DNA from: a virus
DNA: 64,000 nucleotides
Virus record (IMG/VR): IMGVR_UViG_3300036945_001058
Reading direction: 5' to 3' (one strand)
Below, piece by piece: positions 3 through 49,611 of this stretch. Numbering within the stretch: the stretch's first letter is position 1; each line of letters begins with the position of its first letter. The position numbers were made by a program, and so were the translations under genes. The notes beneath the pieces are model-generated. The model made no database searches and was not told where the DNA came from. It was given only the letters and a program-made list of their open reading frames with translations.

Positions 3-1136
3 ATTGACAACACCCCATATTATAATTTTAAAGGCAATAGAGTCTATTTGAGAAAACAACAAGAAGGTACTTATTTAGTGGAGAAATATTGTAAAGATGT
101 CAAAGTTGAATATTCCTCAAATAATAAATTATACTTGCCTTTTAAAGATGGTAAAATCTATAATGGTTGTGGGTTTGAAGTCGATAAAAGTAAAGGTATT
201 TTTGCGAAATTAAAGTATGCTACTACCACTAAGAAAGTCTTTATGTATAGAGAAAAACTTGGCGGAGGAATATCACCTTTTGTTGATTTATTTATCGTTG
301 TTGGTGGTTTGGGCGACATCGATACTGAAAACATGTTGGTAAAAAATTTACCTACATTTATTGTTGCTGATATTTTAGAAAAAGCAGGTGTTAAAGTTAG
401 AATTTATGGTGTTAGGGGTTGTGAGACTCCAGAAGAAACAATAGTATTTTTACCTTTTGCTTTAAAAGAATATGGGGAAACACTTGATTTTGCAAACCTT
501 GCATCTTTTACTTCTGACATCCGTTTTTTTAGGGTAAATCTTTGGCGTAGTTTAGCAACCGTTAGAAGAATGACTAAAAAAGCAAATGACCCAAACAGTA
601 TTGAGTATCCTTATGGTTATGGTGTTACTTTATATGGCTTTAAAGGTAATAGTAGAGATGATTTGTATGATGTTTTTCAAATGTATAAAAATTGGGTTTT
701 CAATCAAAAAGATTCTGTAAAAAATACTACGAAAATTAATGACAAAGGGTTAATGATACTTGGGGGATTAAGAAATTTAAGTAGTAGTGATAGATTAACT
801 GGGGCTAATAGTGTACAGACTTTTGCAAAAATAAAAGAAGAAGTTTATAGAATGTTAGATTATGTTGGTATGTTGTTGACAAATAACGCTTCAAAATTTA
901 TTCAAGGTATTTACGTTAGACAAAAAGAAGAACCTCAATATGCTGGCTATTCCGATTCTGATAAAAAAATACAGATAAGAAGATATTTGTCGGGTCTTAT
1001 TCGAGATAATTTGCAAATAGTTCCAAGTTTAAATAACGCTAATTTAAAGGTTTATGAAACACCTGCTGACGAAGCTTTAAGAATTCAGGAGCGAACAAAT
1101 GATTTGATAAATGCAATTGATAAAACGTTAAGTTAA
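3..1136 (+). CDS. 5'-truncated protein, possibly vWA-like (partner of a MoxR-type AAA+ ATPase)
   Basis: Frame is open back to position 3 (IDNTPYYNFKGNRVYLRKQ), so the real start lies upstream of the window. VDLFIVVGG...IVADILEKAGVKVRIYG gives a vWA-like strand/helix pattern, but there is no canonical DxSxS. Confidence 0.4.
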   Translation: MDNTPYYNFKGNRVYLRKQQEGTYLVEKYCKDVKVEYSSNNKLYLPFKDGKIYNGCGFEVDKSKGIFAKLKYATTTKKVFMYREKLGGGISPFVDLFIVVGGLGDIDTENMLVKNLPTFIVADILEKAGVKVRIYGVRGCETPEETIVFLPFALKEYGETLDFANLASFTSDIRFFRVNLWRSLATVRRMTKKANDPNSIEYPYGYGVTLYGFKGNSRDDLYDVFQMYKNWVFNQKDSVKNTTKINDKGLMILGGLRNLSSSDRLTGANSVQTFAKIKEEVYRMLDYVGMLLTNNASKFIQGIYVRQKEEPQYAGYSDSDKKIQIRRYLSGLIRDNLQIVPSLNNANLKVYETPADEALRIQERTNDLINAIDKTLS

Positions 1137-1137
1137 T

Positions 1138-1413
1138 ATGGTAGCTGAAGTAACAAAAAGAAAAAAACACTACGAAGATTTTGGCAAGTACAAAAACGTA
1201 TCTTTGAATAATCTTAAGGTTTTAAAACACGCTGAAATACCAGATATGTTTTTTATCCACGTTAATTATCACATTGGTGAGGGTGGAATTTACAAAGAAG
1301 TAGAAATACTAGAGGCATACGAACCTGAAAATGGTTGGCAAGATTTGGAAAAAAGCATGACAAAATTAGAATATGGTGCTTTTTTAGGCGATTTGAAACC
1401 AACAGAAATATAA
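1138..1413 (+). CDS. hypothetical protein
   Basis: ORF packed between neighbours in the same orientation. Confidence 0.6.
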   Translation: MVAEVTKRKKHYEDFGKYKNVSLNNLKVLKHAEIPDMFFIHVNYHIGEGGIYKEVEILEAYEPENGWQDLEKSMTKLEYGAFLGDLKPTEI

Positions 1414-1428
1414 TTTAAAAGGTAAAAA

Positions 1429-2787
1429 ATGGAATTAACAATGGACTATAAAGAGGGTAATTTAATGAACGAGGGCAATACTTTGTATTTGGTCTTATTT
1501 AAAACTCTTTACAATATGGTTATAGTAGAATTTAGCAATTATGTATTAACAATACCTTATTCTGAATGGAGAAATAAATTACCTATAATCACTTGGAAAA
1601 ATTATGACTTAACAAATAAAGATGATATTGAAAAACTCAATGCTAAGTTTGTTGTTACACTTACGAATAATTTGAATAAATTTCCAATTGTTTATAATGT
1701 TGAAATCGGCTCTGTTCTGGAATTTGACTACAAGCAGATGATACTTTTAGGTAGGACAGAAAGGAAAGTATTGACTTTTACCTTGATAAGACCCATTTTA
1801 TTTGATTTTAACAAAGCAAAGGAAAAATACATAGTATTTGACAGAATGGGTAAAACAATGGAACTACAGCAAGAATTTGACTTAAATTGGGCTGAATACC
1901 TAATCACTCCTTTTGCTTCTGAAGAAAATATTGATTGGAATGTAGTTAGAGATAGGTTGCCTTTTGAAGAGGTTGTTGGAAAAGATTTTATTGTAAATGA
2001 ATTTGCTCCTTACCCAACCGAAGAAATTACTTTAGATGATTTTTACAAAGTAATTGATTCTAAAAAATTAAATAAAATTAAAGATAAGGGTATTAAAAAC
2101 GAAATTATTAAATTAATTAAGCAGACTTTAGTTCTTGCCAAAGAAAACAATAGTATTGGTATTAAGTTGGAGTCAAAAGAGCCACAGAAGCAAACCAAAG
2201 AGGAAGTAAGGTTTAATATTGAATTTACCTATAAAATAAATTCGTCTGATAGGGATGTTTTAACTGTAAGCGAGTTTGTTTATGGAGTTGATAAAGAAGA
2301 CGCTTTGGCTAAAGCTCCAAATTACTTTTACGATATTTATGAGGGTAAAAATTATGACTTAATTTCAGTATCTTTAATCGAGGAAAGTGAGGAAAAAGAG
2401 ATAAAAGAGATAAAAGAGGAAATAAAACCTGTCGTACCAATAAATGAAGTTGTTGATGAAAATGCTGGTAAAACTCTTTATAAAATAGAGGTTGTTGTTT
2501 CCGAATATAAAAAAGACGGTGGTACAAAATACTCTAAATTATATGATGTGTATGCCGACAACCAAGATGAAGCACTTGAAAAAATAAGAAAACAAGTAGG
2601 GGAAAGCATCAAATTAATCGATTTGTATTACGATTCTGATTTGATTTTACAAGTAATACCTCCTGTTAATAAAGAAGCTGTAATTGAAAAACCAATTGAA
2701 GAAACGGAAAACCTTGAAGACTTATTAGCCCTTTATAAAATTGGAGAAACAGAAAATCTTGAAGACTTATTAAAACTATACGAATAA
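1429..2787 (+). CDS. hypothetical acidic protein with two small repeated domains and a duplicated C-terminal ETENLEDLL
   Basis: 452 aa ORF; V-x-A/G-x-D-x-x-D/E-A-L motif occurs twice; 27-nt repeat at 2701-2727 and 2746-2772. Confidence 0.7.
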   Translation: MELTMDYKEGNLMNEGNTLYLVLFKTLYNMVIVEFSNYVLTIPYSEWRNKLPIITWKNYDLTNKDDIEKLNAKFVVTLTNNLNKFPIVYNVEIGSVLEFDYKQMILLGRTERKVLTFTLIRPILFDFNKAKEKYIVFDRMGKTMELQQEFDLNWAEYLITPFASEENIDWNVVRDRLPFEEVVGKDFIVNEFAPYPTEEITLDDFYKVIDSKKLNKIKDKGIKNEIIKLIKQTLVLAKENNSIGIKLESKEPQKQTKEEVRFNIEFTYKINSSDRDVLTVSEFVYGVDKEDALAKAPNYFYDIYEGKNYDLISVSLIEESEEKEIKEIKEEIKPVVPINEVVDENAGKTLYKIEVVVSEYKKDGGTKYSKLYDVYADNQDEALEKIRKQVGESIKLIDLYYDSDLILQVIPPVNKEAVIEKPIEETENLEDLLALYKIGETENLEDLLKLYE

Positions 2788-2802: not shown

Positions 2803-5800
2803 ATGAACTCTACATTATTAAAAAAATACGAAACTATCGACCAATCTAAAGTGTCTGAAAAAGATAAAAAAGTATTGGAACAAGTAAAAAAACTCACGAA
2901 TGGTTTCGAGGAAACAGATGAAGCGAAAAACAAAGTTGCCGAAAAGATTTTAGACCAAATCACAACATTGAATCCTGATGCTGTAAAAAAGCCTGAAGTA
3001 GTTGCTCAAAAAGTTTCTAAAGTACAAAAGGTGGTTAAAGCCAAAAAAGTAACGAAAGCAAAAAGCACTGCAACTACTCATAAAAACAGCCACAAGAACA
3101 CTCCTGCTCCTGCTCCTGCTCCTGCCTCTGCTCCTGCAAGTGCTAATACTGCTAAAGGTTCGGGCAATAACATAATGTCTGTTGCAAAAGAAATTCAAAA
3201 AACTGGAGAATCTTGGAAAGACGCTATAGAACGTGCTAAACAAGTTCTCAAAGACCGTAAAGAACAAGTTGTTGAAAAAAAGAAAACTGAATTACAGAAG
3301 CTTTTAGCACTTGTTAAAACTAAAAAAGAACTTCAAGGCTTTGCTAATTCCGATATTGATAGAGATTCACGTAGAACTGCTTTGCCAAGAGGTAGACGAC
3401 TTTCTAAAAATGGTAATACCTATTATGAAAATAGAGAGAACCGCACAGACAGACTTGCGCCTAATTACCCACAAGATATGCCTTTGTTGGCGAGTGGCGG
3501 TGAAACCGAAAAATACAAAGCAGGTCAAAAATTTTACGACACAAGATACGATAGAGTTTGTGAAATAGTTCCGTCTAACTACGATGGTTTGGTTACTTGG
3601 AAAAGGTATAATAAATCAGGAACGGAATTTGAAAATAACGAAAAACACTCGTTGGTTGAAAATCAATTTGATTATTTAGTAAATATGGGTGCTTATCAAA
3701 TTAGCAAACAACAAATGGCTGAAGGCGGTTCTGTTTCAAATGAAAGAATGTATAATTTCTTAACAGACGATTTGAATAAATTAGAAATTGCAATAAACGA
3801 AGGCGACAAAGAAGAAGTTGAAAGATTTTTTTCTTATTGGAGTTACCATTTAAAATCTCTTGAAAACAAAAGGTACGGTGAAAAATACGGCAGAATGTAC
3901 AATTTCTTAGAAGACGATTTAGGAAAATTAGAAAAAGCAATAAACGAAGGCGACAAAGAAGAAGTTGAAAGATTTTTTTCTTATTGGACTGGTAGTTCGG
4001 GTCATATAAAATCATTAAAAATGGCTAACGGCGGTTCTATAAATATGAATAAACATATTTGGGAGGGTTGGACTGTTGGGGGGTTTATCGAAGATTTAGA
4101 ACCTACATTTAATCAAATTATGACAGGAAGTTCTTGGCAAGAACCATTTAAAACCAAAGAAGAAGTTAAGAAATGGACTATGGATAACCAACCAAACTAT
4201 AAAAAAAATATTCCAGAAGTAGTAAATTATTTCTGGGCTAGGGTTCAAAGCAAAGAGAACTACGCTAACGGCGGTTCGGTTGGAAGTGGTAAAAACGGAT
4301 ATGTAGCCTTTTATAAAGGGAAACAAGTTGATGTTTATGCCGACACAAAATACGAAGCTCAAAAATTAGCTTCTCAACATTTTAAAGCTAAAAAAGATTA
4401 CGATGTAAATGTTGTTTTAGTAGAACTTGACGGAAAGCCTTATGTTAATAAGGCTAGTTTTGCCGATGGAGGAGAAACAAACGAATATACCTTAAATTAT
4501 AAAATTGAATTTACTACATCTGGTGAAGATTCTTATTTAGAAGGTAATGTAGGTGGAGATATTATGGATTTGAGTGATGTTAAAAATATTGATACTAATA
4601 AATATTCTGCAATAGCAAAAAGTTCTAGTGTAGCTTTTGAGGGGCTTAAAGGTCAGGAATTAGAAGATGAGATATACAATCAAATGAACGAAATGTTTGC
4701 TACAAATGACAGTATTGAAGTTGATTTAGAATCGGTCGAATTTAAAGGTAATAAATTTTCAGACGGCGGTTATTTTGATAAACTAGAAGACGTTAATTTT
4801 CTATTTGAAGTTGGAGAAAAAATAAAAATACCCCAAATGGAAAATGGAAAGTTAGAATTAGTCGATGCTGAAATTATAGAACAATACCCTGCCGAACAAA
4901 ATGACGGAACATATTATCCTTTTTATTATGTAAAAGGTTTGTGGAAAAACGCAGGTAAAATGCTTTATGATGAAGAAAAAATTTTAGAATACGGAAATAA
5001 AAATAAAAATTCTTTTGAACTTGGTGGAGCTTTTATGACTGATTTAGCAGGTCATACAGGAGGTTCTTTCGGAACAGGTAATCCGACAAATTTAGATAGT
5101 TTTTCAGGCACTAACTATACAGGTCTTGTTGGGGAAACTGGCGCAATGTCAAGCGGTGAATTATTTGAAAATGGCGGTGCTATGATACAAAACCAACAAG
5201 TAATTAATGATGCTTCTCAATCTTATGTTAATTACTACTTGGGAGATGGCGCAGGTCAAGGTAGTTATAAAAAAGGTGGTTCAATTCCAAACAATTACGA
5301 AGGAAGGACAGCGGATGATGTTTGGGGAAATTGGACAGAAAAACAAAGAAGCCACTTTCTTTTAGACCATAGCGAATTACTAGACAAGGATAGGCTTGAT
5401 AATAATTTAGGTTATACAAGGACAGTTCAAAAAGACAAAAAATTCACAGAACTAACTCCGCTTACAAAAAGAGTATTGGAATCTCATATTGGAAGCGGTC
5501 AATATGCTTACGGTGGCAAAATAAACGGCAACCTAAACAAAAAAATAAAATCTTTAGCCGAGAAAAAAGGAATAACTCCTGATGAATTAGGCATTGTCGA
5601 ATACAATAAAGCTATGACTCAAGCATTAGTGGAATCTTTAACTGATGCTAACTTTCACGATGAAGCAAAAGAAGTTATCTCCGCTATGGAGAAAAAAGAA
5701 TGGTCTGACGATTTGTATAAGTCGGTATATTTCAATCCTGATGAAAAAATAAGTTCTTTTGCTAGAGAAGTTGCGAGAGAATGTGAATGGGACGGAAATG

Positions 5801-8800
5801 ATATTATAAACGCCTATTTCTTTGTAACTAAAATGAATGGTTTAAAAGTTGGGTCTGTAATTGAAAATTTGTTTTTAAAAGCGAAGCCAACGAAAAGTGG
5901 TTTCGATGGAAACATAGAGTTTAACGTTGGCGATATTGTATGGCAAAAAGACGAAAGAGGATACGCTACCGTAATAAATAATTACGGCGACCCCATTAAT
6001 GGAAATTATGGAGACGTAAGGCTTGACTCAACAGGAAACACTGGGATTTACAGTCACGACTCAAAAAGGAAAACACCTGCCACAACAATAAATGCAACTG
6101 GTTATAATCTTATCAAATTAGGAGAAAAAGGAGACACAGGAAAGTTTACAACCGAAGTTCTTGCTAAAATGAAAGAAAGTGCAAATAGCCTTATTGATTA
6201 CAGAAAAAAAGCCAAAGACAAAGATGGTATTGTTTATTACCAAGAGGTTTACAAAAGGCTTCTCGATGGCGAGTTTGATTCAATGGTTAAAGGAACTTCA
6301 ACCCAAAAAAAATACATTGACCACGATGACATTAAAACCGTTACGGTAATGTATAAAGGCAAGCAAACCGTATTTAAAGGCGAGGACGTTCTTAACGGAG
6401 CAAACTTACTAGAAGATGGCGGAGACCTAAGTAAAATTGCTTTCTATATCGCTAAACGTGACGTAGTTTCTGTAGAGCTTAAAAACGGAGAAACAATAAA
6501 GCCTGCAAATGGATATTGGATTAAGAAAGGGGCAGAGCCTCTTTTTACCCCAAGCGGAACTCCAAAAAATAAAACGGACGAAAATAAAGCACATTTTCAA
6601 GCAGATGCTTTAGGGAATATTTTTGTAGATAGTAATTTTGTTAATCAATCTAAAGGTAATTTACCAAATTCAGAATTAAAGCATTATGGCTTTGGAGATT
6701 TTTATTTAGAAACTCCCGAAGGTAATATTGACTTTATTAGAACTTCTGAAGAAAAAGAAGGTTTTGTTGGTCGAACCCATAAATTAAAAGGTAGTAATGA
6801 ATTAATAAAGAAATTAATTGACGCTATGAAAGAAAAAGGCAGGTTTGACGATAATCAAACTTTTGCAAATGGAGGGTCTTTTGCTAAAGGTGGTGCTTTC
6901 AAACCTTACGGAAAAACAAAAGGAAGATACACAGTTAATTACACTGTAGATTCTGAAAAACAGTCTGAAATTTGGAACACAAGAGAAATGGCTGTGAATA
7001 ACGCTAAAAGATACGCTAAAATTGACGAATATTCAGATGTAATGGTTTTTGACGAAAACGGCAATGAAATTGATTTTTTAGTTGAAGTTTCTTTTGCTGA
7101 CGGTGGATTATTAAACAGTCGTCAAATCGAAAAACTAGATAATGGTTTTACAATTCCTCAACTTGACAAAATGTTAAGAGAAATGTTTCCTGATTCTTTT
7201 GGATTAGCTGTTTTTAAAAATGGTAAAAACCTACTTGATTACGATTATAAAGACAAAATAAAAGGCGATAAATTAAAGCTTTATTTCTACAACAAAAACT
7301 CTCGAAGAGATTTGAATTACGAGGTTCGTCAAGGGGAAGAAAATACATATTTTGATTTTAAGTTATTCGATGAAGAACAAAATACTTATACAGGTGGATT
7401 TGGATTTAAAGACGAGGGTGATGTGGACAAAAGTTATATAACCAAATTTCTTTCTTTTTTACAAGACGCTTATCATTATCCTTTCGAGGTAAAACATCTT
7501 GTAATGGCTAACGGTGGTGGTATTTCCGACTATGGGAACAGTCCAGAACTTAAATCTTTGATAGATAGACATGAAAAATTACATTTCGATGTTAAAAGCA
7601 AGATTGCAATAGCGGTTGGTCTTGACGATGCAATTTCTTTTTATGATGTAAATTTAAAAATTAATCCTTTCAGGTTTATTGAAAGAGCTGTCTATGGCGG
7701 TTTAATTTCGCTTGACGAAATAGACAAACAGCTAATCGATTCAGCAATGGAAGAAGCAGAGGATATTGATAGTGATGATGATTTGGACGAAATTGGTAGT
7801 AGCGACTTTACTTATTACTTGAAAAATGTTTTGGAAGATGCTGGCATTAAAGTTGGATTCGTAAGTGGTAGACTTCGTAGATTAAATGAAGATGGAAGCG
7901 TAAAAGAAATTAGTAATAATTTTGCTGAAGGTGGAGAAATAAGAAGATTCAATCGACACGAACAAATGGATTCTGAAACAAGAGAAGAAATTTTAGATAT
8001 TGTTTCTGACCCAAATTTAAACGGCACTTTAACTAATTACTTATATGGTTTATTTGACGGATACGATTATTCTGAAACAGAAAATTTTAAAAAAGAATTG
8101 AACAAGTTAAAATCAAAAGGTTTAGCTTTATACAGTAGAATAATTGATGTTTACGAAAAAATCGAAAAGTACAAATTTGAAAAGTATGATGAGTACGCTG
8201 ATGGTGGAATGTTTGAAGCTCCAATTGGTGTTCAAAGGGAAGTTAAGGGAAAATTAATTAGTGTTCCCACAACAGAGCAAATATCAAAATCAGAAGTTGA
8301 CAGATTTGTAGATTACGTTTATGAAGCTTATGAATCGTACGACCAAGAAGGTGTATATCAATTTACAAAACCACAAGTTAGAAAAGCAGTCAATAAATAT
8401 TTGACTCAATTAGAGTTTCAACCTACTTGGGGAGGTGGTGATAGTTTAGATAGAGAAAGAGTTTACGAATTTCTTATAAATCCGAAACTTGACGAAATTA
8501 AAAATCCAGTCTTCGCTAACGGTGGTTTTTTTGATAACAACGATGGTTTTATGGAAGCAAAAAACGGAAATAATTACCGTTATCCAGAAAGACCTGTTAA
8601 TATTGATGTTATTGACGAGCCGATTGATTTAACAAATAATGTTAGTAATCGCACAAATAAAGTTGTTATAAAACCAATTAGTGAAGATGTAGACATAACA
8701 GGGAATAACTTAAAAGCAAAGTTAGGTCATTACCAAAAAAACAGAACACCTGACAAAATGATTGCGGTAAATCCTAGAATGATTTTATATAATTTACCAA

Positions 8801-8832
8801 ACATTAATTATGAAGAACATAAAAATAACTAA
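2803..8832 (+). CDS. giant modular polyprotein 1 (18 [FYML]xxGG motifs), probable internal virion protein
   Basis: 2009 aa ORF. Motifs in order: LASGG, MAEGG, MANGG, YANGG, FADGG, FSDGG, FELGG, FENGG, YKKGG, YAYGG, LEDGG, FANGG, FAKGG, FADGG, MANGG, FAEGG, YADGG, FANGG. Confidence 0.75.
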   Translation: MNSTLLKKYETIDQSKVSEKDKKVLEQVKKLTNGFEETDEAKNKVAEKILDQITTLNPDAVKKPEVVAQKVSKVQKVVKAKKVTKAKSTATTHKNSHKNTPAPAPAPASAPASANTAKGSGNNIMSVAKEIQKTGESWKDAIERAKQVLKDRKEQVVEKKKTELQKLLALVKTKKELQGFANSDIDRDSRRTALPRGRRLSKNGNTYYENRENRTDRLAPNYPQDMPLLASGGETEKYKAGQKFYDTRYDRVCEIVPSNYDGLVTWKRYNKSGTEFENNEKHSLVENQFDYLVNMGAYQISKQQMAEGGSVSNERMYNFLTDDLNKLEIAINEGDKEEVERFFSYWSYHLKSLENKRYGEKYGRMYNFLEDDLGKLEKAINEGDKEEVERFFSYWTGSSGHIKSLKMANGGSINMNKHIWEGWTVGGFIEDLEPTFNQIMTGSSWQEPFKTKEEVKKWTMDNQPNYKKNIPEVVNYFWARVQSKENYANGGSVGSGKNGYVAFYKGKQVDVYADTKYEAQKLASQHFKAKKDYDVNVVLVELDGKPYVNKASFADGGETNEYTLNYKIEFTTSGEDSYLEGNVGGDIMDLSDVKNIDTNKYSAIAKSSSVAFEGLKGQELEDEIYNQMNEMFATNDSIEVDLESVEFKGNKFSDGGYFDKLEDVNFLFEVGEKIKIPQMENGKLELVDAEIIEQYPAEQNDGTYYPFYYVKGLWKNAGKMLYDEEKILEYGNKNKNSFELGGAFMTDLAGHTGGSFGTGNPTNLDSFSGTNYTGLVGETGAMSSGELFENGGAMIQNQQVINDASQSYVNYYLGDGAGQGSYKKGGSIPNNYEGRTADDVWGNWTEKQRSHFLLDHSELLDKDRLDNNLGYTRTVQKDKKFTELTPLTKRVLESHIGSGQYAYGGKINGNLNKKIKSLAEKKGITPDELGIVEYNKAMTQALVESLTDANFHDEAKEVISAMEKKEWSDDLYKSVYFNPDEKISSFAREVARECEWDGNDIINAYFFVTKMNGLKVGSVIENLFLKAKPTKSGFDGNIEFNVGDIVWQKDERGYATVINNYGDPINGNYGDVRLDSTGNTGIYSHDSKRKTPATTINATGYNLIKLGEKGDTGKFTTEVLAKMKESANSLIDYRKKAKDKDGIVYYQEVYKRLLDGEFDSMVKGTSTQKKYIDHDDIKTVTVMYKGKQTVFKGEDVLNGANLLEDGGDLSKIAFYIAKRDVVSVELKNGETIKPANGYWIKKGAEPLFTPSGTPKNKTDENKAHFQADALGNIFVDSNFVNQSKGNLPNSELKHYGFGDFYLETPEGNIDFIRTSEEKEGFVGRTHKLKGSNELIKKLIDAMKEKGRFDDNQTFANGGSFAKGGAFKPYGKTKGRYTVNYTVDSEKQSEIWNTREMAVNNAKRYAKIDEYSDVMVFDENGNEIDFLVEVSFADGGLLNSRQIEKLDNGFTIPQLDKMLREMFPDSFGLAVFKNGKNLLDYDYKDKIKGDKLKLYFYNKNSRRDLNYEVRQGEENTYFDFKLFDEEQNTYTGGFGFKDEGDVDKSYITKFLSFLQDAYHYPFEVKHLVMANGGGISDYGNSPELKSLIDRHEKLHFDVKSKIAIAVGLDDAISFYDVNLKINPFRFIERAVYGGLISLDEIDKQLIDSAMEEAEDIDSDDDLDEIGSSDFTYYLKNVLEDAGIKVGFVSGRLRRLNEDGSVKEISNNFAEGGEIRRFNRHEQMDSETREEILDIVSDPNLNGTLTNYLYGLFDGYDYSETENFKKELNKLKSKGLALYSRIIDVYEKIEKYKFEKYDEYADGGMFEAPIGVQREVKGKLISVPTTEQISKSEVDRFVDYVYEAYESYDQEGVYQFTKPQVRKAVNKYLTQLEFQPTWGGGDSLDRERVYEFLINPKLDEIKNPVFANGGFFDNNDGFMEAKNGNNYRYPERPVNIDVIDEPIDLTNNVSNRTNKVVIKPISEDVDITGNNLKAKLGHYQKNRTPDKMIAVNPRMILYNLPNINYEEHKNN
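3745..3987 (+). repeat. internal duplication (2 x 96 nt, period 147) encoding RMYNFLxDDLxKLExAINEGDKEEVERFFSYW
   Basis: 3745-3840 vs 3892-3987 are near-identical. Confidence 0.9.
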
Positions 8833-8850
8833 ATTATAATAAATAAAAAT

Positions 8851-11800
8851 ATGAAGCTATTCGATAAAACAATAGACGAACAATTATTTAAACAATATGC
8901 ACTTGGTAGTGACCTCTCTAAACAAGAGGTTGTTGTTAAGATTTATAATCCTTTTGGAGCGGGAAGCTGGTATATATTAAATTCCGACCCGCAAGACCCT
9001 GATTACCTTTGGGCAATTGTTGATTTAGGCTATGGAGCAGAAGTTGGTTCTGTTAGTCGAAACGACCTAGAAAGTTATCGTGGTGAATTCGGGTTAGGAT
9101 TTGAACGAGATTTAGGTTTTGAACCTGTTAATGGAGAAGAACTCTTTAAAGGACTTCGTCAAGGTAAGTTTTACGCCAATGGTGGTGGGATTGATGATTA
9201 TTCTGATTTGTATGGTCAAGAAGTTATGGCTTTAAAAAACGCAAAAAATCAAGCGAAAAGAACGGGTTACGACTATCTTGTTTATTTGAAATAAGGAGAA
9301 ATTTCTTTTGCTCGTAAAAATGAATTTGAAAGATTCTTTGATAAAGAGGAGTGTAAAATACTATATACGATTGATGAAAAAGGAAATGCTGATAAAATCA
9401 AGTCTTATGATGAAGGCGGAAATGTTGAAGAATACAAACCTTATGTATTTTATTTCTATTACGATGGGAACGAAATGACCTTTAACACTTTAGAGAAAGC
9501 TCTTGAAGAAGCTAAACAATTAGGAGCAATGAAAGTTAGAGATGATTTAGGAGGAGAGTACTTTGTAAATTATGCTGACGGCGGAAACTTGTCAAGAGAC
9601 CAGAAATTCGTAAACAAAAGCGAAGATTATGAGGTAGAGTATTCAAAAGGCACGAATCGAAAAGGTTATGAAAAACATTCTTTTGCAGAAGGAGGAAACG
9701 TAAGACAATCTTTAGAAGATGTTTTGAAACAAGATGTTACTTTTTTAAAATTCGATAGTAATAGAGCTTACGATAAATTAGTTAGATTAAATATTCCGCT
9801 TATTAATGTTCACGATTATGATTTTAATCATTATACTATAATTGAAACTAAAAACCTTGAAAAAGTTTTAGAGTATGTAAAAAAAGGGGTAAGAATAGTT
9901 AAGAAGAAATTTGCATCGGCTGATTTGGGTTTTGACTACAGAGGGAGTATGAGTTTTGAAGATGGTGGAGATATTGATAATGAAATCTACGAAAAAAGAC
10001 TTCAATATTTAAAAATGATGAAGAACAATGAGCGTAGTGATTTGGGTAAATACCAAATAGATAAAGAAATTAAAAATATAAATATGATTTTAGAACATAG
10101 AAAAAACATAGAAAGTTCTTATTCTAATGGCGGAAATCTATTTAAAAACCTTAGTATTGAAAAACAAGAAGCAAGACAAAATCTTAAAGAAAACATTATA
10201 AAAGCATTATTTGTAGATAAAAAAAATCCAATCACAGAAGTTGCTTTAACCTATTCTAATTCTAAGTATTCAGTTCCTAATATTAATAAACAAGACATTA
10301 GAAATACGGTATGGGAGATAAACCAAACTAAAAAATATAAAAATATAATTGTTTACACTAATTCTTATGGCGTTTTGAGTTTAAAAGTAGAAAACAGCTT
10401 TGAAGAAGGTGGCTCTATCAAAAAAACAAGGCGAACAAATAACCAAATAAGAAAAGATAATTATAACAAGGAAGTTGATTTGTATAATTGGTACGTTGTT
10501 AATGTTGCAGAATTAAAAGCGGAATCAGGATTTGAACACAAAGAAGATGCACTTGATTTGCTTTCGGACTATGATGGTGATAAAAACTTTAAGGTAGTTT
10601 CTAAAAAATCTTTAAAAACTTTAGGAATTGAAATACCTAACGAAAGATGGAAATATGCTAATGGTGGAAGTTTTGACGATGATTTTGACGGAATTGCTTA
10701 TGCTAAAACCAAAGGAAAAGAAAGTATCGACTGGGATAAGGAATTAAAAGAATATGCTGGCGAAAAAGAATATCAAAGATTGACTCCACGAGAAAAAGAA
10801 GAAATAATTTCTGACCTACAAAGAGATTGGGATAGGTCTAATTCCTATGCTAATGGAGGAAACATAATAAAACCAAAAGTAGGAGATACGATATTTAGAG
10901 CTTACTACGTTAAGGATTACGATGGCGAACATTATAATGCAATTATTATAGCTGAAAACGCTGAAAAAGCCGAAGAAAAAGCAAGGTCAATCTACAAGGA
11001 TGATTTTTCTTTTATAAGTGATGGCATAAAAATAAAGAACGAAGAACAATTGTTTGAAGAAACAAGAGAAGACGAGCCAGTTTATAATTGTGAAAAAGGA
11101 GAAGAAATGAACGCAAAAGATTTAACTAATAAAGAAGTTTATGAGCAAATTGTGTCGAAAGTAGGTAATAGTATTTGGGAACAAAATGCTTTAAATATAC
11201 TAAGGAATGAATCGGTAAAGAACCCTGATGGCGTATTTAAACCTACAGGAGATTTAGACAAGTTGCAAAAGTATCTATCCAATAGTAATTACTATGAAAA
11301 AGGCGGAGAAATTGCCAAAGCAGAAATTCTCGGTTTCAGTAAAAACATAATGGGAACTACTGATATTGAAATGAGAATAACAGGAATGAGAAAACCTCAA
11401 AACTTCATTGTTTATCCAATAGGCAAAGACGATGCTGGAAGTGTTATTACAATCCAATCAGAAACAAGAATAGGTCAAATTAACTTGGTAAAAGGGGTTG
11501 GTGTAATGAGCCAAAGTCATTCAAGCGGGGCTTATTTTGTTCACTTACAAATGGATAAACTAACTCCTTTCACATTAAGCGAAAGCGACTTGGAAGACCT
11601 AAAAACAAGCGTTTTTAAAACTTCTGGTTCTAACGTTGGGTCTTCTATTGTAAAATCTGATAATTCAGGGGCTTCAAGGATTTTAGCCAAAGGTGGCGAC
11701 TTAGGCAAATACGAAGGCGGTAAGAATTTTGAAATTAGAGACTACAAAATGCTAAATATAGATGATGTTTTAGAGAGAGAAAAACCTATAAAATTATACA

Positions 11801-14799
11801 AAGAGCAAGTTTTATGTATAAATCCTACTTATGCCGATAATTATACATATTGGATTTGTCCTAGAGATATAACCATTAAAGAAAATTACGGAAACATTTA
11901 CATAGAAAAAGGAGATAAGCTGTATTTGACAATACAAAACCCTGTAAATGGAGACGCTAGTTCGTCTACCTCTTATAATGTAATTATAAACGGTAAATCC
12001 TACCCTTTATTACATTTTATTCCAGAAACAGCAGATGGTGGCGACTTAGACGATGTTAATCATTATGATGCTATTACTCAATTAAAAAACTTGGACAAAG
12101 TATTAACAGGAACACTCGAAACGCCACAACAAGCGGAAGAAAGAAAAATAAGAATAGCTGAAACGTTAATACCAGCTAATGATTTCTATGTTTCTAAACC
12201 ATATCATTCTCACGGTTTTGAACACCCTCAAAAAGTTATATTCAAAGACGGTAAGTGGCTTAGATTAAGAGAAGATAAATGGGTTACTAAAGAAGATTAC
12301 GAACAACAAACAAATAGACCCGACTTAAATTTTGATGAAGACCAATTTAATATTTGGGGCAAATTTGACACCAAATATGATTTAGCTTGGGATATAGTAA
12401 TGAATGCAAGGGTTATTTTAGAAGAAAAATCGGAAAAAGACATTGATAGCAAGTGGGATAAACAGTATGATTATTTAACTTCGGAAAACAAAAAACAATA
12501 CAATTCTAAAACAAAAGAAAGTAAACTCGAAAACGGTGGCGATGTTTTAGAAAGAGGAAAAAAATCTGGATGGGGAAATGTTAGCGAAGAAGAAGATAAT
12601 GCTATTGCTTGGTACAGCAGTCTTTCTATGAATCAGCAAAAGGAAGTTGATAAACATCTTGAAAGCTACAAAGCTAATCTTACTGAAGAAAAGTTCCAAA
12701 AAAGAGGATTAAGTGTTAGAGATTTCGGACGCACATATCGAAGAGATAAATTAATCCATATTTGGAAATCAGAGGGTAGTCCCGAACCACAGGATAGCTT
12801 TGCTAATGGTGGCTCTACTGGGGATGTTTACGCTGACGGTGGACAAATTAGAGTTGGCGACAAGTATAAATACAACTGGACTGACAATGATGGTAATGAG
12901 GGATATACAATTCGTGAAGTGGTAAAGCAAAACATTACGAGTAGCAAAGATTTTAGAACTAAAGTTATGATTATGAAGGTTGTTGAAAGCTCAATGCCTG
13001 AACAAGTAGGACGATTAGAAGAAGAATATAAACCAAGTTTCAAAAAAAGAATTGGATGGGGTTTAGAAATTCCTATGCACGAAAGAATGCCGAAATTAAC
13101 TGATGAAAATTATGCCAAAGGCGGAAGCTTAGAAGATAAATTGACTAAACTTGAAAAGAAGAAATCCGACTTAGAATCAAAATTATTTGAAGCTAAATTA
13201 GCAGAAAATAAAGTTATGAATAATATGGGTTTTGGCGCAGGAATGAGACGTTCTAAGATTAGTATTTCCACAACTAGAACTGATTCGTTAAAAGCTAGGA
13301 TTGAGGCTGTAGAAAAAGAAATCGAGCAAACCAAAGAAGATATGTTGCCAAAAAAACCAAAATACATTCTAAAAGCAGACATCAAAACAGTTACGGTAAA
13401 ACGGAACGGTAAAAAAGTTACCTATAACAGCGCAGACGTTTTGAATGGTGCTAATGTACTTGAAAAAGGGGGTGATTTGACTTCAAAAGCGAATTACGTT
13501 GCAAAACGTGATGTGGTTAGTGTGGAATTAAAAGACGGAACTGTAGTTAAGCCAGTAAACGGATATTGGGTTAAAAAAGGTGCTGAACCGATTGGAGCAG
13601 AACCAAAATCTACCCAATTATTAAATACATTATCTGATAACGAGAAAGAAATAGACGAAAAGTTAGCATTGTTTACAAAATCAGACAAGGAATTTAATAG
13701 GTTGCAATCTGAATCAAATAAAGAATTTGTTAAAAAGACGAAATTAGAAAAAGAAAGAATTGCTTTAATTAAAAAAGGCGTTAGTAATACCGAAGAAATT
13801 GATGCTAAAATAAAGGATGCAAAAGAAAAAGGTAATTTGTATTCAGAACAAGCGATTGGTTTGTTAAAGAAATATCAAGAAGATTTGGCACAACCTAAAA
13901 ATTCATCTTCATCGGTAAATAAAATTAGCACTACCGAAATAAGAAAAGACCAAAGAGGTATTTGGAGAGCAGAAACTACCATAGATAACTTTAATGGTTA
14001 TGATTGGAGACTAACTACTTTAAAAACATATAGTGGTCAATTAATTTCTTCTGCTCAAGGTGGAAAGTTTCAAGATTCAGGAAGTAAAGGCATTAATATG
14101 TTTAAATACACAATGTACGAAGACCCATATCACACTTTAGAAGTTTCAAAACCAAGCCGTTTGACTGAAAAAGTGGTTGCAGAGCAACACGTAAAAGCTT
14201 TAGCTAAATTTAAAAAGTTTATGGAAACAGGAGTGTTCAAAGGAGGTGGTAAAATATCTACTTTTGATAAGGTCTCTGCTAAAATAGCAAAAGAGTTCGA
14301 GGGTAAGCCTGTTGCAAATAAATATCAAGAAGAATACGGAAAATATTATTCTAAACAAGAAGCTGAAATTGTGGGTAATAAAATTACTGGAAAAAGTAGA
14401 GCAATGGATGTTGATAAAAAAGCATTTGGCGGTTTATTTAGCCACGTTAAAAAACTGACTGATTCCAAGCCAAAATACCCAAATCTTGAAGGTAAACAAG
14501 TTTTTTTAAAGACAGGAGAACTCGTTCAAGTTTTTACACAATCTGACAATACTTTAAGCGTTTTAGATGTGAGTAAAATGAATTATTCAGGCGAAAGACC
14601 ACGTTTGATTGATATTTCTGAAGTGAAAAATAGTTCATTTGAAAGCGGTGGCGGATTAAATACCAAAACATCGAATAAAGGTGCTGAAACTTTAAAAAAA
14701 GCAAATGAGTTGGCTACTAAAATTAGAATTAAAGGCGAGAGTTGGTTAGATGCTAAAAAAAGAGCTTTTGCCGAATTGAAAAAAGCAGTGTCAAACTAA
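8851..14799 (+). CDS. giant modular polyprotein 2 (N-terminal DUF2958-like module; ~18 [FYML]xxGG motifs), interrupted by one in-frame TAA at 9292-9294
   Basis: ORFs 8851..9294 and 9475..14799 are in the same frame. The 180 nt between them are stop-free and encode SYDEGG. The N-terminal module VKIYNPFGAGSWY...GAEVGSVS...ERDLGF resembles DUF2958. Confidence 0.75.
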
Positions 14800-22450: not shown

Positions 22451-23545
22451 ATGAATAACCAAGAAAACTACCAAGATGTAGAGATTGTTAATGATGACTT
22501 CTCTCCATTAGATGCTCCTGTAAAAGAAAGGGCATATACTCATCACAAAATAGACGAAACTCAAGTAATGCAAGACTTGGAAGAACCTACGTTTGAAAGA
22601 CCTAGTTTTTCAGACCTTGATGATACTGCCGAAGAAGGGGAACAAGAACCAGAAAGACCTTTTAATCAGTCCTACAGTGAGTTAGATGGGAAAGAGAAAA
22701 CTATGGGTGCAGAGATGATGGCTGATATGACATTAGACATTTATGATAAAGCTTGTTTTTATATGGGTAAAATACCAGAGATAAGCGAGTCAAAACTTGA
22801 TAAATTAATAGCAGAAGGGGAAATAGACCCATCAATTCAACTCCAGACAGAATCGGGCGGTATGGCTGTTAAAGATTTTGCCGTAGAGTTTAATGACAGT
22901 ATAAAAGATGCCTTTCAGGTTAGCGATGAATTTAAAGAAAAGGTAAAACCACCATTAATCCGTGTGTTCAAAAAACGTGGAATTGGAATGACCGATGAAC
23001 AGTTGTTGGCTTACTATTTCGTTACCGATTTAGGTGCTAAAGGTGCGCAAGCTTTTATGTTGAGAAAAACCGCTAATGGTATTTTAGATTCTTTGAAAGA
23101 AAACACAATAGCAATTAGAGAAAGTCAAATAAGAACTCAAGCACCACCTCCGCCAGCTCCGCAACAAGCATATCAAGAAAGACCAACTTCACAAGAAACA
23201 TATCCGAAACAGTCAAAAAGTTCTGATGACGAGTATTCTGCAAATATAGCAGAAGTAATTAGTGAGCCTGTTAAAAAAAATAAGAATGAAAAACCAGTTA
23301 GAAGAACGGCTAAAACAAATCTGGAAGAACAGGTTGCGTATTTTGAACCCGAAGAACAAGAGGTTTTTAGCAATTTAAAAGACAAAGATGGCTTTACTGA
23401 TAGTTTTCAAGACGTAGTAGGTATGCCACAGTACGGCGACCCATTAATGATGTCAGAATTAGAAAGGTTAAGTAAAAAAGACCCAACTAAACCTGTTAGA
23501 AAAGTAAGAACAACGGCTTTAAGAAAACCAAGAAATAAAAAATAA
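22451..23545 (+). CDS. hypothetical acidic protein with Pro/Lys-rich tail (possible assembly protein)
   Basis: 364 aa ORF near the ATPase gene. Confidence 0.6.
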   Translation: MNNQENYQDVEIVNDDFSPLDAPVKERAYTHHKIDETQVMQDLEEPTFERPSFSDLDDTAEEGEQEPERPFNQSYSELDGKEKTMGAEMMADMTLDIYDKACFYMGKIPEISESKLDKLIAEGEIDPSIQLQTESGGMAVKDFAVEFNDSIKDAFQVSDEFKEKVKPPLIRVFKKRGIGMTDEQLLAYYFVTDLGAKGAQAFMLRKTANGILDSLKENTIAIRESQIRTQAPPPPAPQQAYQERPTSQETYPKQSKSSDDEYSANIAEVISEPVKKNKNEKPVRRTAKTNLEEQVAYFEPEEQEVFSNLKDKDGFTDSFQDVVGMPQYGDPLMMSELERLSKKDPTKPVRKVRTTALRKPRNKK

Positions 23546-24392: not shown

Positions 24393-25208
24393 ATGGAACA
24401 AAGAGAACCGAAATTAATTATTGTTGTGGGGCGTAAGGGTTGTGGGAAAACCTTTACAACCACGAAGCTCATTAATCAATACGCACAAGGAAATCCGTCT
24501 AAAGGTGTTCCTGCGAGAAGGGCTTTAATCCTCGATGTAAATGACGAATACGAACAATTTAAAGCACTAAAATTATCTGATATTATGAGATTTTCAGCAC
24601 ATCCTAAAATTGAAGTAAGAAGAATTAGACCGTTTCATGATAACGGGCTTAGAATGACGATTAGGGATTTACAAGAAGCTTTATCTAAAATACTTAGGGA
24701 TTTTAGAAATGGATTATTTCTTATTGAAGATAGTTCAAGAATTCTTGCTGATAGTTTATCTATGGATTTGATGGGAGCAATTGCCACAAGTAGGCATTTA
24801 GATATGGATATAATAATGCACTTTCAATCAATAGGAAGAATAACTCCTAAAATTTGGCAGAACCTCACGCACATTAGGTATCATAAACAAACGGATGGGG
24901 TAGAGAAAAACAAAAGTAAATTTGAAGATAAATACGAATTGTTAAAATTAGTAGAAAGTTATGTAGATGATGAGTATAATAATGGAAATCAAAGGTTTTA
25001 TTTATATATTGACGTAGAAGATGAAAAAATAAAAAATGTTGATTTAAAAAAATTCGACAGAATTGTAGAAGACTATGTGATTGAAAATCAGAAAAGATTA
25101 ATAGCTCCGTTGGTAAATAAGGGGAGTTTGTTAAAAAATACTAAAGCACAAACTGTAGAGCAAGCATTAAAACTACAAAAAGAAAGAATTATAAAATATT
25201 ACACATAA
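24393..25208 (+). CDS. FtsK/HerA-superfamily (poxvirus A32/PRD1 P9-like) genome packaging ATPase
   Basis: Walker A VVGRKGCGKT, ILDVNDEY, Walker B LFLIED, and an SRHxxxDIIMHFQS Arg-finger/sensor motif. Confidence 0.8.
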   Translation: MEQREPKLIIVVGRKGCGKTFTTTKLINQYAQGNPSKGVPARRALILDVNDEYEQFKALKLSDIMRFSAHPKIEVRRIRPFHDNGLRMTIRDLQEALSKILRDFRNGLFLIEDSSRILADSLSMDLMGAIATSRHLDMDIIMHFQSIGRITPKIWQNLTHIRYHKQTDGVEKNKSKFEDKYELLKLVESYVDDEYNNGNQRFYLYIDVEDEKIKNVDLKKFDRIVEDYVIENQKRLIAPLVNKGSLLKNTKAQTVEQALKLQKERIIKYYT

Positions 25209-25220
25209 AAAAAGGCTATT

Positions 25221-26390
25221 TCATAGCCTTTTTTTTATTAGATGTTCAATATTTTGCCCTTGATTTAAAAGAAAAACTGCTCTATCATAAACACCTCTTG
25301 CTGATTCAGGATTATCATAAGAGCCTAAATTATTAGTTTTTCCCTTTATTGTTAATTTAGCCTGAAACTTATCGCCAGTCCTAAAAACACCTTTATATGT
25401 TTTATTTGGAGATTTTTTAGGATAAAAATGCTCTATTGATTTTCCTTCTAAAATTAATTTTTTAGCTTCCAAATATCTATTATTTGCTAAATTTACATCT
25501 GCAAAAGTACCTAAATCTTTGTTTAACCCATCTATATAAATCCTTACTCTAAACTTATCACGGCTTTTATGAACTCCTCTAAAATTTGTTTCGCTTATTT
25601 TAATATTTTCTGTAGGCATTACTTTACCTCCTTTATTTTTAATTTCAAGAGCTTTCTTATATTCTACTCCTGCTAATTCGGCAGTTTCAAAAACACCTAA
25701 ATTAACAAATTTATTATCTATAATAATTCTAGCTTGAAATGTACTTTTATTTTTACATACTCCCGTATATAAATTGATGTTGCTTCTTGTTTTTACTAAG
25801 TGCAAAATATCTTTATTACAATCTATCAATCTAACTGCTTCATTATATTTTTCAGATGCTTCTTCAGGAGTATTATAAGCCCCTAAATTAAGTAATTTTC
25901 CTTTGTGTTGAATTACAGCGACAAATCCATTTTTAATTTTAGAAACACCTGTAAATCCTGCTGAATTTATTTTGTCTTTTGAAATATTATTACGATGAGT
26001 GATTACTTGTAAATTAGAAAGCATATTATGCTCTTTCACATTATCTTTATGGTCAATTACCAGTTCATTAGTTCTTGGGAAATGATTTATAAAAGCAATA
26101 GAAACTAAATGATGTGTTAAATAACTTTTTAATTTTGAATCTTTATAAAGACCAACTGAATAATAAGCAACCCTTTTGCTTTGCTTCATTATTTTTTCTT
26201 TTGACAAAAAAGTTCCTTTACCAGAAGAATGATTTTTATAGCGGTCAAGTCTTTTTACCCTACCTAAATCACTTACTTGATACAGCTCTTCATAATCAGG
26301 AATATCTTTCCATTCCTCAACACATTCTAAACCCTCTCCGTTTAAGTAAACGATAGGCTCTAAACTAAAATCTAAATGATAGTTTGACAT
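25221..26390 (-). mobile_element. NUMOD4-HNH homing endonuclease with four AP2-like domains
   Basis: WKDIPDYEELYQVSDLGRVK (NUMOD4), IDHKDNVKEHNMLSNLQ (HNH), four xxGV...F.A.I...LG repeats; opposite strand to its neighbours. Confidence 0.85.
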
Positions 26391-45010: not shown

Positions 45011-45017
45011 TATTTAT

Positions 45018-48686: not shown

Positions 48687-49154
48687 ATGGCGGGTTTGTA
48701 TGCACCAGTAGTTACTTCATATCCAAAAGGAGTATTTTCAATAACAAGCAACAAAGGAACTCCATACCCTTTGATACAAGAGTCTATGGGTAGTTACCAA
48801 TACCGTATAGATGAAATTTATTTACAAGCAAATACGGCACAACAATTATTTCAGCCTATAAGCTTTAGGAGTTATGATGCTAATGGAACTGTAAATATTG
48901 TTGTAGATGTTATAACTATCAATCCTTATCAGAAACAAAACTCACTTTTTATAAAGCCTGTAAATAAAAATCTAATTCTCGATGGGCGTACATCTATAAA
49001 GTTTGATTTACTACCAAATGAAGAACAAAACATGGTCTTTTTTACTACCGAACAGTCAAATGATTACGGTTTAAAAGAACCAAATTTCTTTGACGATTAT
49101 TTTTTTAAACAACAACAAGACGATTTTTTTAATGGGTTTGTCGAGCAAGTTTAA
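48687..49154 (+). CDS. paralog of the capsid candidate (minor or second capsid protein)
   Basis: YLQANTAQQLFQ...DANG...TINPYQKQ...LDGRTSI aligns with YIQSATTNQVLQ...DANG...TIDPYQQQ...IDGFTKI. Confidence 0.65.
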   Translation: MAGLYAPVVTSYPKGVFSITSNKGTPYPLIQESMGSYQYRIDEIYLQANTAQQLFQPISFRSYDANGTVNIVVDVITINPYQKQNSLFIKPVNKNLILDGRTSIKFDLLPNEEQNMVFFTTEQSNDYGLKEPNFFDDYFFKQQQDDFFNGFVEQV

Positions 49155-49611
49155 TAGGTTGGGTCTTTATAAATTAAAGATTGAGAACAGAAGTCAAATA
49201 GTGTCTAAACTAAAAACAGGAGACACAATTACAACAAAATCCACATTAATACCTCTTTACGTTCACTACGGAATAATTGAGAGAATTGAAGACGAGATAT
49301 TTATAGTGCATTTACATCCAAATAAAGTTAATTCTAGTGGGGGTAATTTAATTAAAGAACCTTTAACTAAATGGCTTGTAGGAGGTAGAGAAATTGTTTC
49401 AATTCAAGAAACAAATTTAGATTCAGCTACACTAGACCAACTTTATAAAGATTTAAAAGAACAAAAATACGACCCTATTAATTACAACTGTGAGCATTTT
49501 GTCAATTTTGCAAAAGGAGATTATTTTGTTAGCAGACAAGTGATTAGATATACAGGAATACTTTTAATAGGTGTTTTTGTATATTATTTGATAAAAAATA
49601 AAAAAATATAA
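49132..49611 (+). CDS. LRAT/PLAAT-like H-box/NC protein (permuted papain-like NlpC/P60) with C-terminal TM
   Basis: VHYGII...VHL...YDPINYNCEHFV; likely start is ATG 49132. Confidence 0.75.
   Translation: MGLSSKFNRLGLYKLKIENRSQIVSKLKTGDTITTKSTLIPLYVHYGIIERIEDEIFIVHLHPNKVNSSGGNLIKEPLTKWLVGGREIVSIQETNLDSATLDQLYKDLKEQKYDPINYNCEHFVNFAKGDYFVSRQVIRYTGILLIGVFVYYLIKNKKI

Follow-up and report, generated by a model that had tools for sequence, protein, structure and literature searches.

The stretch of DNA analyzed here, hereafter the window, comprises 64,000 nucleotides (nt) of the IMG/VR virus record IMGVR_UViG_3300036945_001058, the source of which is a large, uncultured virus of freshwater Bacteroidota. 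Near the start of the window lies an open reading frame (ORF) that encodes polyprotein 1 (PP1, P0001), a protein of 2009 amino acids (aa) in which a short peptide featuring two consecutive glycines (GG) recurs 18 times. The frame is open throughout its 2009 codons, the G+C content of the window is 31%, and TAA is the stop codon of 23 of the 24 long ORFs checked in the window. The gene is laid out as follows:

2803..8832, + strand: PP1, 2009 aa, with 18 junction motifs of 15 nt
2803..3501, + strand: constant N-terminal module, aa 1-233 (module family 2, 79 homologues)
3502..5028, + strand: variable cassettes, aa 234-742, seven inter-motif segments of 16-102 aa
5029..5517, + strand: constant central core, aa 743-905 (families 1, 3, and 0, in 60-89 homologues)
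5518..6894, + strand: modules aa 906-1207 and 1208-1358, and mini-segment 1359-1364
6895..8526, + strand: cassettes, aa 1365-1908, five modules of 71-139 aa
8527..8832, + strand: constant C-terminal module, aa 1909-2009 (family 4), and TAA stop

Within PP1, the pattern [FYML]xxGG begins at aa 229, 305, 407, 487, 553, 652, 738, 788, 822, 901, 1203, 1354, 1360, 1431, 1568, 1707, 1798, and 1904, which correspond to nt 3487, 3715, 4021, 4261, 4459, 4756, 5014, 5164, 5266, 5503, 6409, 6862, 6880, 7093, 7504, 7921, 8194, and 8512. Direct counting therefore bears out a preliminary description of the window, which had reported 18 such motifs in a 2009-aa polyprotein and had suggested a comparison with shuffled sequence. 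Across 2000 shuffles of PP1, the pattern appeared 2.7 +/- 1.6 times with a maximum of 10, which places the observed number far above chance, and the narrow form [FYML]A[NDE]GG occurs 10 times when 0.04 are expected. A six-frame scan of the 64 kb located 23 of 25 strict motifs in one frame at nt 3487-13111, a span that comprises PP1, a DUF2958 ORF (8851-9294), and polyprotein 2 (PP2; ORF 9475-14799), which contains 16 motifs versus 1.5 expected. Loose matches occur at 9.0 per 1000 aa in PP1 versus 1.06 in other window ORFs of at least 80 aa, where they are mostly LxxGG of membrane helices. Taken together, these results show that the motif in PP1 is real, specific, and far beyond chance.

The segments that the pattern separates range from 6 to 302 aa. 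The preliminary description held that they are unrelated to one another, which stands except for an internal 49-aa duplication within segment 310-411; the segment of a single residue that it also listed is merely a GGG run. The duplication in module 310-411 (3730-4035) is in tandem, and a contig (X2) of another freshwater metagenome lacks 147 nt (3790-3936), which correspond to one copy.

Among 5.8 billion proteins searched, 108 were identified as homologues of PP1, with lengths from 1107 to 3340 aa. The best local alignment for each homologue spans just 4-28% of PP1, which indicates a mosaic family, and the motif is present in all 108, at densities of 6.8-15.9 per 1000 aa. The N-terminal module, searched for among 1.84 billion proteins, was found in 343 cluster representatives, at the N-terminal position in every case, and the 97 new representatives of at least 400 aa obtained in this way are motif-bearing, with a median of 10.2 motifs per 1000 aa. 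The resulting junction consensus has seven residues, [YFM]-A-[DKN]-G-G-x-[VLIMF]. In a logo of 2792 GG sites, position -3 is Y, F, or M in 72% of sites (L also occurs there), position -2 is A in 56% or else E, position -1 is D, K, or N in 65%, and the second residue past GG is V, L, I, M, or F in 75%, with almost no information in the flanks beyond the junction peptide. The codons of the motif differ synonymously (GGT/GGC/GGA, GCT/GCC/GCA, TTT/TAT/TAC/ATG), which indicates selection on the peptide rather than on DNA and rules out conservation of the motif at the DNA level. Self-cleavage by Asn/Asp-Gly chemistry is also unlikely, given that Lys is the second most common residue directly ahead of GG.

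When PP1 was compared with its homologues by BLAST, 64% of alignment starts fell within -12 to +3 of a motif end and 61% of alignment stops within -3 to +10, as opposed to 14% and 12%, respectively, when 18 cut points were placed at random (at most 40% and 38% over 1000 trials), which supports the earlier claim that the motifs separate unrelated segments. Cutting all proteins at the motif yielded 2452 segments with a median length of 73 aa, and those of at least 30 aa group into 404 families, 206 of them singletons. The architectures share a frame that consists of the N-terminal family, a central trio, a few common modules, and the C-terminal family; between the constant modules lie differing cassettes in an order that differs among relatives. 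The preliminary description had pointed to gain or loss of whole modules in homologues as a check, and to indels unrelated to motif positions as evidence to the contrary. Whole modules are in fact inserted and lost at the motifs in relatives, even between the three central constant modules. The short segments between close motifs (6, 10, and 20-23 aa) are themselves conserved peptides.

The modules of PP1 differ in how widely they are kept. The N-terminal module contains a basic stretch rich in Lys, Ala, and Pro, and its second half is strongly conserved. The module families within aa 234-742 occur in only 3-27 homologues each, their order differs, and segment 492-557 matches the stand-alone phage family phrog_19202. 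The central core begins with two Gly-rich, near-invariant modules (743-792 and 793-826) that are predicted to be disordered, followed by a third module of 79 aa, which is helical and features conserved W841, H851, F852, D855, H856, and H895. Module 906-1207 (302 aa) has several sub-domains, the 6-aa segment 1359-1364 lies between tandem motifs, and a unit over aa 1170-1240 recurs in PP2. Module 1803-1908 matches phrog_7799, which like phrog_19202 is a small phage family that stands alone and has no known function. Family 4, which ends PP1, is the last module in 63 homologues and is mostly disordered by prediction.

For structure prediction, MAFFT alignment of the multi-module set stacked fragments of different modules, and only the collinear segment sets (A4 and A6) were folded. 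The AlphaFold2 model of aa 743-1364 has a mean predicted local distance difference test score (pLDDT) of 70, and the motifs ending at 792, 826, 905, 1207, 1358, and 1364 overlap coil with pLDDT <50. The first two of these lie inside an 86-residue stretch predicted to be disordered (pLDDT <50 for 743-828), which gives way to helices. The model of aa 1365-2009 has a mean pLDDT of 62, and the motifs ending at 1435, 1572, 1711, 1802, and 1908 likewise overlap coil with pLDDT <50; within it, module 1573-1711 is modeled with pLDDT >90 and two motifs form its exact borders. In the two models combined, 11 of 11 motifs are predicted to lie between folded units and 0 of 11 in helix or strand, so that the predicted boundaries coincide with motifs as the preliminary description had anticipated, and the models place no motif inside a folded domain, the outcome it had named as contrary evidence. 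Low-confidence breaks that contain no motif also occur inside the 302-aa module, which indicates that some linkers do without one. The Gly-rich core and the C-terminal module are near-invariant in sequence yet predicted to be disordered. In fold searches, neither model had a meaningful match in PDB at E <= 0.001, nor did the second in AlphaFold DB clusters; the sole AlphaFold DB entry under this cutoff (5.1e-4) has a template-modeling (TM) score of 0.09-0.12 and is not meaningful. Scattered matches to 3C/TEV protease folds were dismissed as noise (TM 0.14-0.15, no conserved catalytic residues). Taken together, we conclude that the motifs delimit evolutionarily and structurally independent modules, of which PP1 contains about 19.

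We found no Pfam match in PP1. Among 150 module-family representatives, there were 3 weak Pfam matches and 17 PHROG matches, nearly all of unknown function, and most of the approximately 400 module families have no Pfam match. In the homologues, ArdA, RelA_SpoT, DUF2958, DUF6926, and LPD11 each lie within one inter-motif segment, and LPD11, the profile of which has 69 positions, fills a segment of 78-80 aa. LPD1 and DUF5661 are found in relatives and ART-PolyVal in their neighboring giant gene. In a more distant relative, DUF5661, LPD1, and LPD11 occur in three consecutive giant genes, downstream of which lie peptidoglycan-hydrolase and PAP2 genes as in the window. When cassettes were sought as free ORFs in three related genomes, only two pieces split off by TAA codons were found.

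These domains connect PP1 to polyvalent proteins, which Iyer, Burroughs, Anand, de Souza, and Aravind (2017; PMC5512222) describe as giant multi-domain proteins of phages and conjugative elements. According to their prediction, such proteins accompany the DNA into the host and are processed by zincin-like or other peptidase domains embedded in them. PP1 is similar in that many unrelated domains share one polypeptide of a mobile element, and domains defined in that work (LPD11 and LPD1), ArdA, DUF2958, and ART-PolyVal are present in its relatives or neighbors, with no Pfam match in PP1 itself. Judged by its architecture and the domain content of its relatives, the PP1 family appears to fall within the polyvalent class, and the statement of the preliminary description that no prokaryotic-virus example was known at this scale must be tempered, since polyvalent phage proteins with predicted processing have been published. 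Whereas processing by an embedded peptidase is proposed for those proteins, a seven-residue junction bounds essentially every module of PP1; no embedded processing peptidase (zincin-like, papain-like, or assemblin-like) was found in PP1 or the 150 module-family representatives. Glycine, diglycine, and linker gave no hit in the text of PMC5512222, and the junction peptide is apparently not described there. Literature searches on the motif string, on Gly-Gly-cleaved phage polyproteins, and on processed polyvalent virion proteins returned nothing relevant, and the universal junction motif and its cassette grammar were not found in the literature searchable here.

PP1 lies in a conserved gene neighborhood. 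A 132,486-bp contig (G001:C9) from a Sediminibacterium bin is collinear with the window over 68 kb of its length, and two IMG/VR contigs are collinear with the window as well; the stretch itself was found in shale-gas and several freshwater metagenomes. The conserved gene order consists of a MoxR-type AAA+ gene, a von Willebrand factor A (VWA)-like DUF7192 gene, genes for a 91-aa and an approximately 400-aa protein, PP1, and PP2, with small membrane proteins and wall hydrolases encoded downstream of PP2. The neighbors of PP1 in the window are as follows:

3..2787, + strand: upstream genes for a DUF7192 VWA-like protein (5'-truncated by the window), a 91-aa protein, and a 452-aa protein
8851..9294, + strand: DUF2958 module ORF, 147 aa, with its own YANGG junction
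9295..14799, + strand: PP2, frame open from 9295, ORF from the ATG at 9475, 1774 aa, 16 junction motifs

The three upstream genes precede the polyproteins in this order in three related contigs. An ESM Atlas look-up identified a 529-aa upstream protein as DUF7192/VWA-like and returned nothing usable for the 452-aa protein. A MoxR/CobS-like AAA+ ATPase and the VWA-like DUF7192 protein (window 3-1136; L002 5556-8561) are encoded directly upstream in all relatives examined. Upstream, relatives have a third giant gene with junction motifs; in G001:C9, it spans 93146-97999 and encodes 1617 aa with 8 motifs.

Two of the polyprotein frames are interrupted by in-frame stops. DUF2958 is the first module of PP2 in relatives and is split off here by the in-frame TAA at 9292-9294, which lies inside the module, and the frame past this stop remains open and conserved to 14799. 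In contigs of two other freshwater metagenomes, 498 nt are deleted in frame (8849-9346), and with them the DUF2958 ORF and its stop. In G001:C9, a TAA (L001 14993-14995) interrupts PP1 two residues past an FADGG motif, the same frame is kept through to the conserved C-terminal module, with its next ATG encoding the Met of an MADGG motif. These few cases of TAA splits and deletions fit parts that function separately.

We hypothesize that PP1 is a cassette-carrying polyvalent protein that undergoes site-specific proteolytic processing at the junction peptide, a proposal to which we assign an even chance of being correct. A constant chassis, composed of the N-terminal module 1-233, the Gly-rich and helical core 743-905, and the C-terminal module 1909-2009, would flank small proteins of 60-150 aa, about 13 in number, that are exchangeable. 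The junction peptide would be the recognition site for one site-specific endopeptidase, viral or host, that would cut PP1 and the neighboring polyproteins into individual proteins, and one translation product with one targeting signal could thus deliver many small effectors, which in relatives would include several anti-defense or host-takeover proteins. That selection has retained a seven-residue peptide in the exposed linkers that join hundreds of unrelated domains implies that these linkers have a reader in common, and a run of small residues (A, G, G) with hydrophobic neighbors is typical of sites cut by endopeptidases. Cleavage itself, the bond that would be cut (after GG, or aromatic/Ala as in T5 pb2), and the packaging or injection of the products are inferred.

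The tape-measure protein pb2 of phage T5 provides the one experimentally mapped site available for comparison. Linares et al. (2023; PMC10038345) describe its maturation cleavage after R1127 into pb2* and pb2C and cite a 1973 study titled for host involvement in T5 tail protein cleavage. The pb2 site reads FVPR/AEGGMMYPG, with the slash marking the cleaved bond, and has the core A-x-G-G-x-hydrophobic in common with the junction consensus. The two are also alike in that the T5 site sets a functional C-terminal domain apart from the rest. In contrast to PP1, T5 pb2 has one such site in one phage, with Arg rather than an aromatic residue ahead of the Ala, and PP1 is not a recognizable tape measure. 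By analogy, the T5 site suggests that the scissile bond in PP1 could be aromatic/Ala instead of after GG.

Other processing systems resemble PP1 less. In adenovirus and African swine fever virus (ASFV), Gly-Gly-directed cleavage by clan CE proteases yields several virion core proteins from precursors; the adenain consensus is (M/I/L)-x-G-G/x, with a hydrophobic residue at P4, and ASFV pS273R cuts at G-G/x. Relative to adenain sites, the aromatic residue of PP1 lies one position further out with Ala at P4, although GG is invariant, and no C5/C48 peptidase is present on the viral contigs here. The analogy with adenain and ASFV drawn in the preliminary description therefore does not hold for enzyme or register: with no such enzyme detected on the viral contigs and the register of the site shifted by one, PP1 is probably not a member of that system. 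The C39 systems that act on double-glycine leaders also differ, as their PF03412 peptidase has no match on these contigs. In MARTX toxins, conserved and partly Gly-rich ends flank strain-variable effectors, which are exchanged by recombination and released by linker cleavage; these toxins are secreted by bacteria and have their own cysteine protease domain, which cuts after Leu. PP1 is like them in its constant ends and variable cargo, but it is virus-encoded and has no conserved Cys or protease domain. The T4 internal proteins and phiKZ-type inner-body proteins are cut by a prohead protease at a short linear motif, packaged, and injected; they are encoded by separate genes, have N-terminal targeting peptides, and are cut after Glu. 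Pfam scans, which covered the larger window ORFs and 56 ORFs of at least 120 aa from the rest of the 132-kb contig, detected no prohead-protease homologue or HK97 head module.

Several observations weigh against processing. First, no enzyme is apparent: PF00770 (adenain), PF02902 (Ulp/C48), and PF03412 (C39) have no match on the viral contigs G001:C9, G002, and G003, with PF00770 and PF02902 matching only other contigs of the host-genome bin. The module families contain no conserved signature of the HExxH or GDSGG type, PP1 contains just 2 Cys, neither of them conserved, and the Pfam scans revealed no peptidase. Second, the strict motif is restricted to the polyprotein frame and absent from other window proteins, which means that a general capsid-trimming maturation protease is not indicated. 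Third, tandem motifs 6-23 aa apart would free tiny conserved peptides, for which a binding role is possible instead. Any virion location of the PP1 products would be assumed by analogy with polyvalent proteins. The processing enzyme may be novel or host-encoded, and two papain-superfamily proteins were seen in the window:

49090..49611, + strand: LRAT/PLAAT-like permuted papain-fold protein with a His ... NCEHF signature and a C-terminal membrane helix
26831-27358: NlpC/P60-type wall hydrolase

The LRAT-like protein matches PF04970 with 24.6 bits (cutoff 24.3) and PF05903 (PPPDE) with 18.2 bits, under the cutoff, and shares 80% identity with its counterpart in the related 132-kb contig. It is a weak candidate for a GG-directed peptidase, a lipid enzyme being more likely. 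The complex predicted for its aa 30-150 and a PP1 junction segment of 42 aa received a score of 0.00, which counts neither way.

A chain that stays intact would account for part of the same evidence, and we regard this alternative as unlikely, though it deserves serious consideration. The junction would then be a docking or hinge element for a non-proteolytic partner, with the modules arranged like beads on a string, and the partner could be the inside of the particle, a membrane or translocation channel, or the neighboring MoxR-type AAA+/VWA pair. Consistent with such a role, the motif lies in flexible linkers, the conserved 6-, 10-, and 20-23-aa inter-motif peptides resemble repeated ligands, the core and C-terminal module combine conservation with predicted disorder as binding segments often do, the searches for a protease on the viral contigs and for signatures in the module families were negative, and the MoxR AAA+ and VWA-like proteins are conserved just upstream. 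However, a pure hinge would not require conservation of aromatic-Ala-x-Gly-Gly-x-hydrophobic, and the occurrence of small residues amid hydrophobic ones in exposed linkers is what an endopeptidase site would look like. Furthermore, the in-frame TAA splits in two genomes, with the downstream frame kept, suggest parts that work separately, and the T5 site that shares the junction core is a genuine cleavage site.

Alternatively, PP1 could be a divergent tape-measure-type protein with cargo cassettes, in which the junctions are copies of a maturation site. This reading, which is compatible with cleavage, seems to us improbable. It is favored by the match between the junction core and the context of the T5 pb2 site, by the peptidoglycan hydrolases encoded downstream of the polyproteins, and by the N-terminus of the upstream polyprotein in G001:C9, where GG ... 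G-S-E-I-I-I-T-A-P resembles the stretch past the T5 site. In opposition, there is no tape-measure match in Pfam or PHROG, the models consist of small globular domains and disorder with no long coiled coil, giant genes of this kind are found in adjacent groups of two to three, and terminase, portal, HK97 capsid, and tail proteins were all absent by Pfam from the ORFs scanned. The least probable alternative is that the motif is a by-product or tool of cassette exchange, a standard joint for foldable in-frame chimeras with no reader protein; although modules are exchanged exactly at junctions, near-identical strains differ by deletion of a whole cassette and by repeat-copy change, and the virus encodes a RecT recombinase, the motif codons vary synonymously with no conserved DNA over a very short 15 nt, the ends of the 498-nt deletion are not at motifs, and position-specific residues that include the hydrophobic one past GG indicate selection on the peptide.

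The remainder of the genome provides context for the virus. Besides the negative results above, the Pfam scans found glycosyltransferases, homing endonucleases, RecT, methyltransferases, GH108, SLT, NlpC/P60, the LRAT-like protein, and a small HerA/FtsK-like ATPase. Comparison with deposited phage genomes by tblastn gave no match for three conserved window proteins and, for PP1, one 5-kb faecal contig only. The ORF at 22451-23545 encodes a 364-aa protein with no family match, the homologues of which number more than 600, are of uniform length, and, among those listed, share 60-86% identity; the protein is acidic, helical-looking, and Pro-rich and is among the most conserved of this virus group. 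It had been considered as a capsid candidate, which was dropped in light of the acidic, helical-looking, and Pro-rich consensus, and as a guess it may be a scaffold or core protein. The HerA/FtsK/Zot-like P-loop ATPase (window 24393-25208, 271 aa) is the only gene product seen that resembles a packaging ATPase. At window 44192-45779, a sulfotransferase gene overlaps an adenosine 5'-phosphosulfate (APS)-kinase-like gene, which may form a sulfation pathway, and clusters of glycosyltransferase, methyltransferase, and sulfotransferase genes occur on related contigs. An HNH homing-endonuclease gene (window 25221-26390, - strand) lies inside a long gene block of the opposite strand, and relatives have further NUMOD4/HNH genes.

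A broader possibility, which we put forward tentatively and consider doubtful, is that these contigs represent an unrecognized lineage of large Bacteroidota viruses (>130 kb, with no detectable terminase, portal, or HK97 capsid) that would load dozens of small host-takeover and anti-defense proteins onto two or three giant carriers, which would be cut at a universal Phi-A-x-G-G-x-Phi by a dedicated endopeptidase that is unrelated to known Gly-Gly proteases and possibly host-encoded. If this were true, the junction would act as a portable 'cut here' tag and delimit some 400 new families of small effectors, and junction processing would perhaps be common to tape-measure maturation in tailed phages.

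The junction motif offers a handle on how giant polyvalent proteins come apart, and its likeness to the site in the T5 tape measure may reflect a processing activity that both share. If the junction is a cleavage site, the virus would use a polyprotein strategy at a scale usual for eukaryotic viruses, with about 19 proteins per gene and three such genes per genome, and the motif would give the exact boundaries of hundreds of uncharacterized small viral proteins. The content of the relatives (ArdA, DUF2958, ART, and RelA/SpoT-like domains) suggests that many of these modules are counter-defense or takeover factors.

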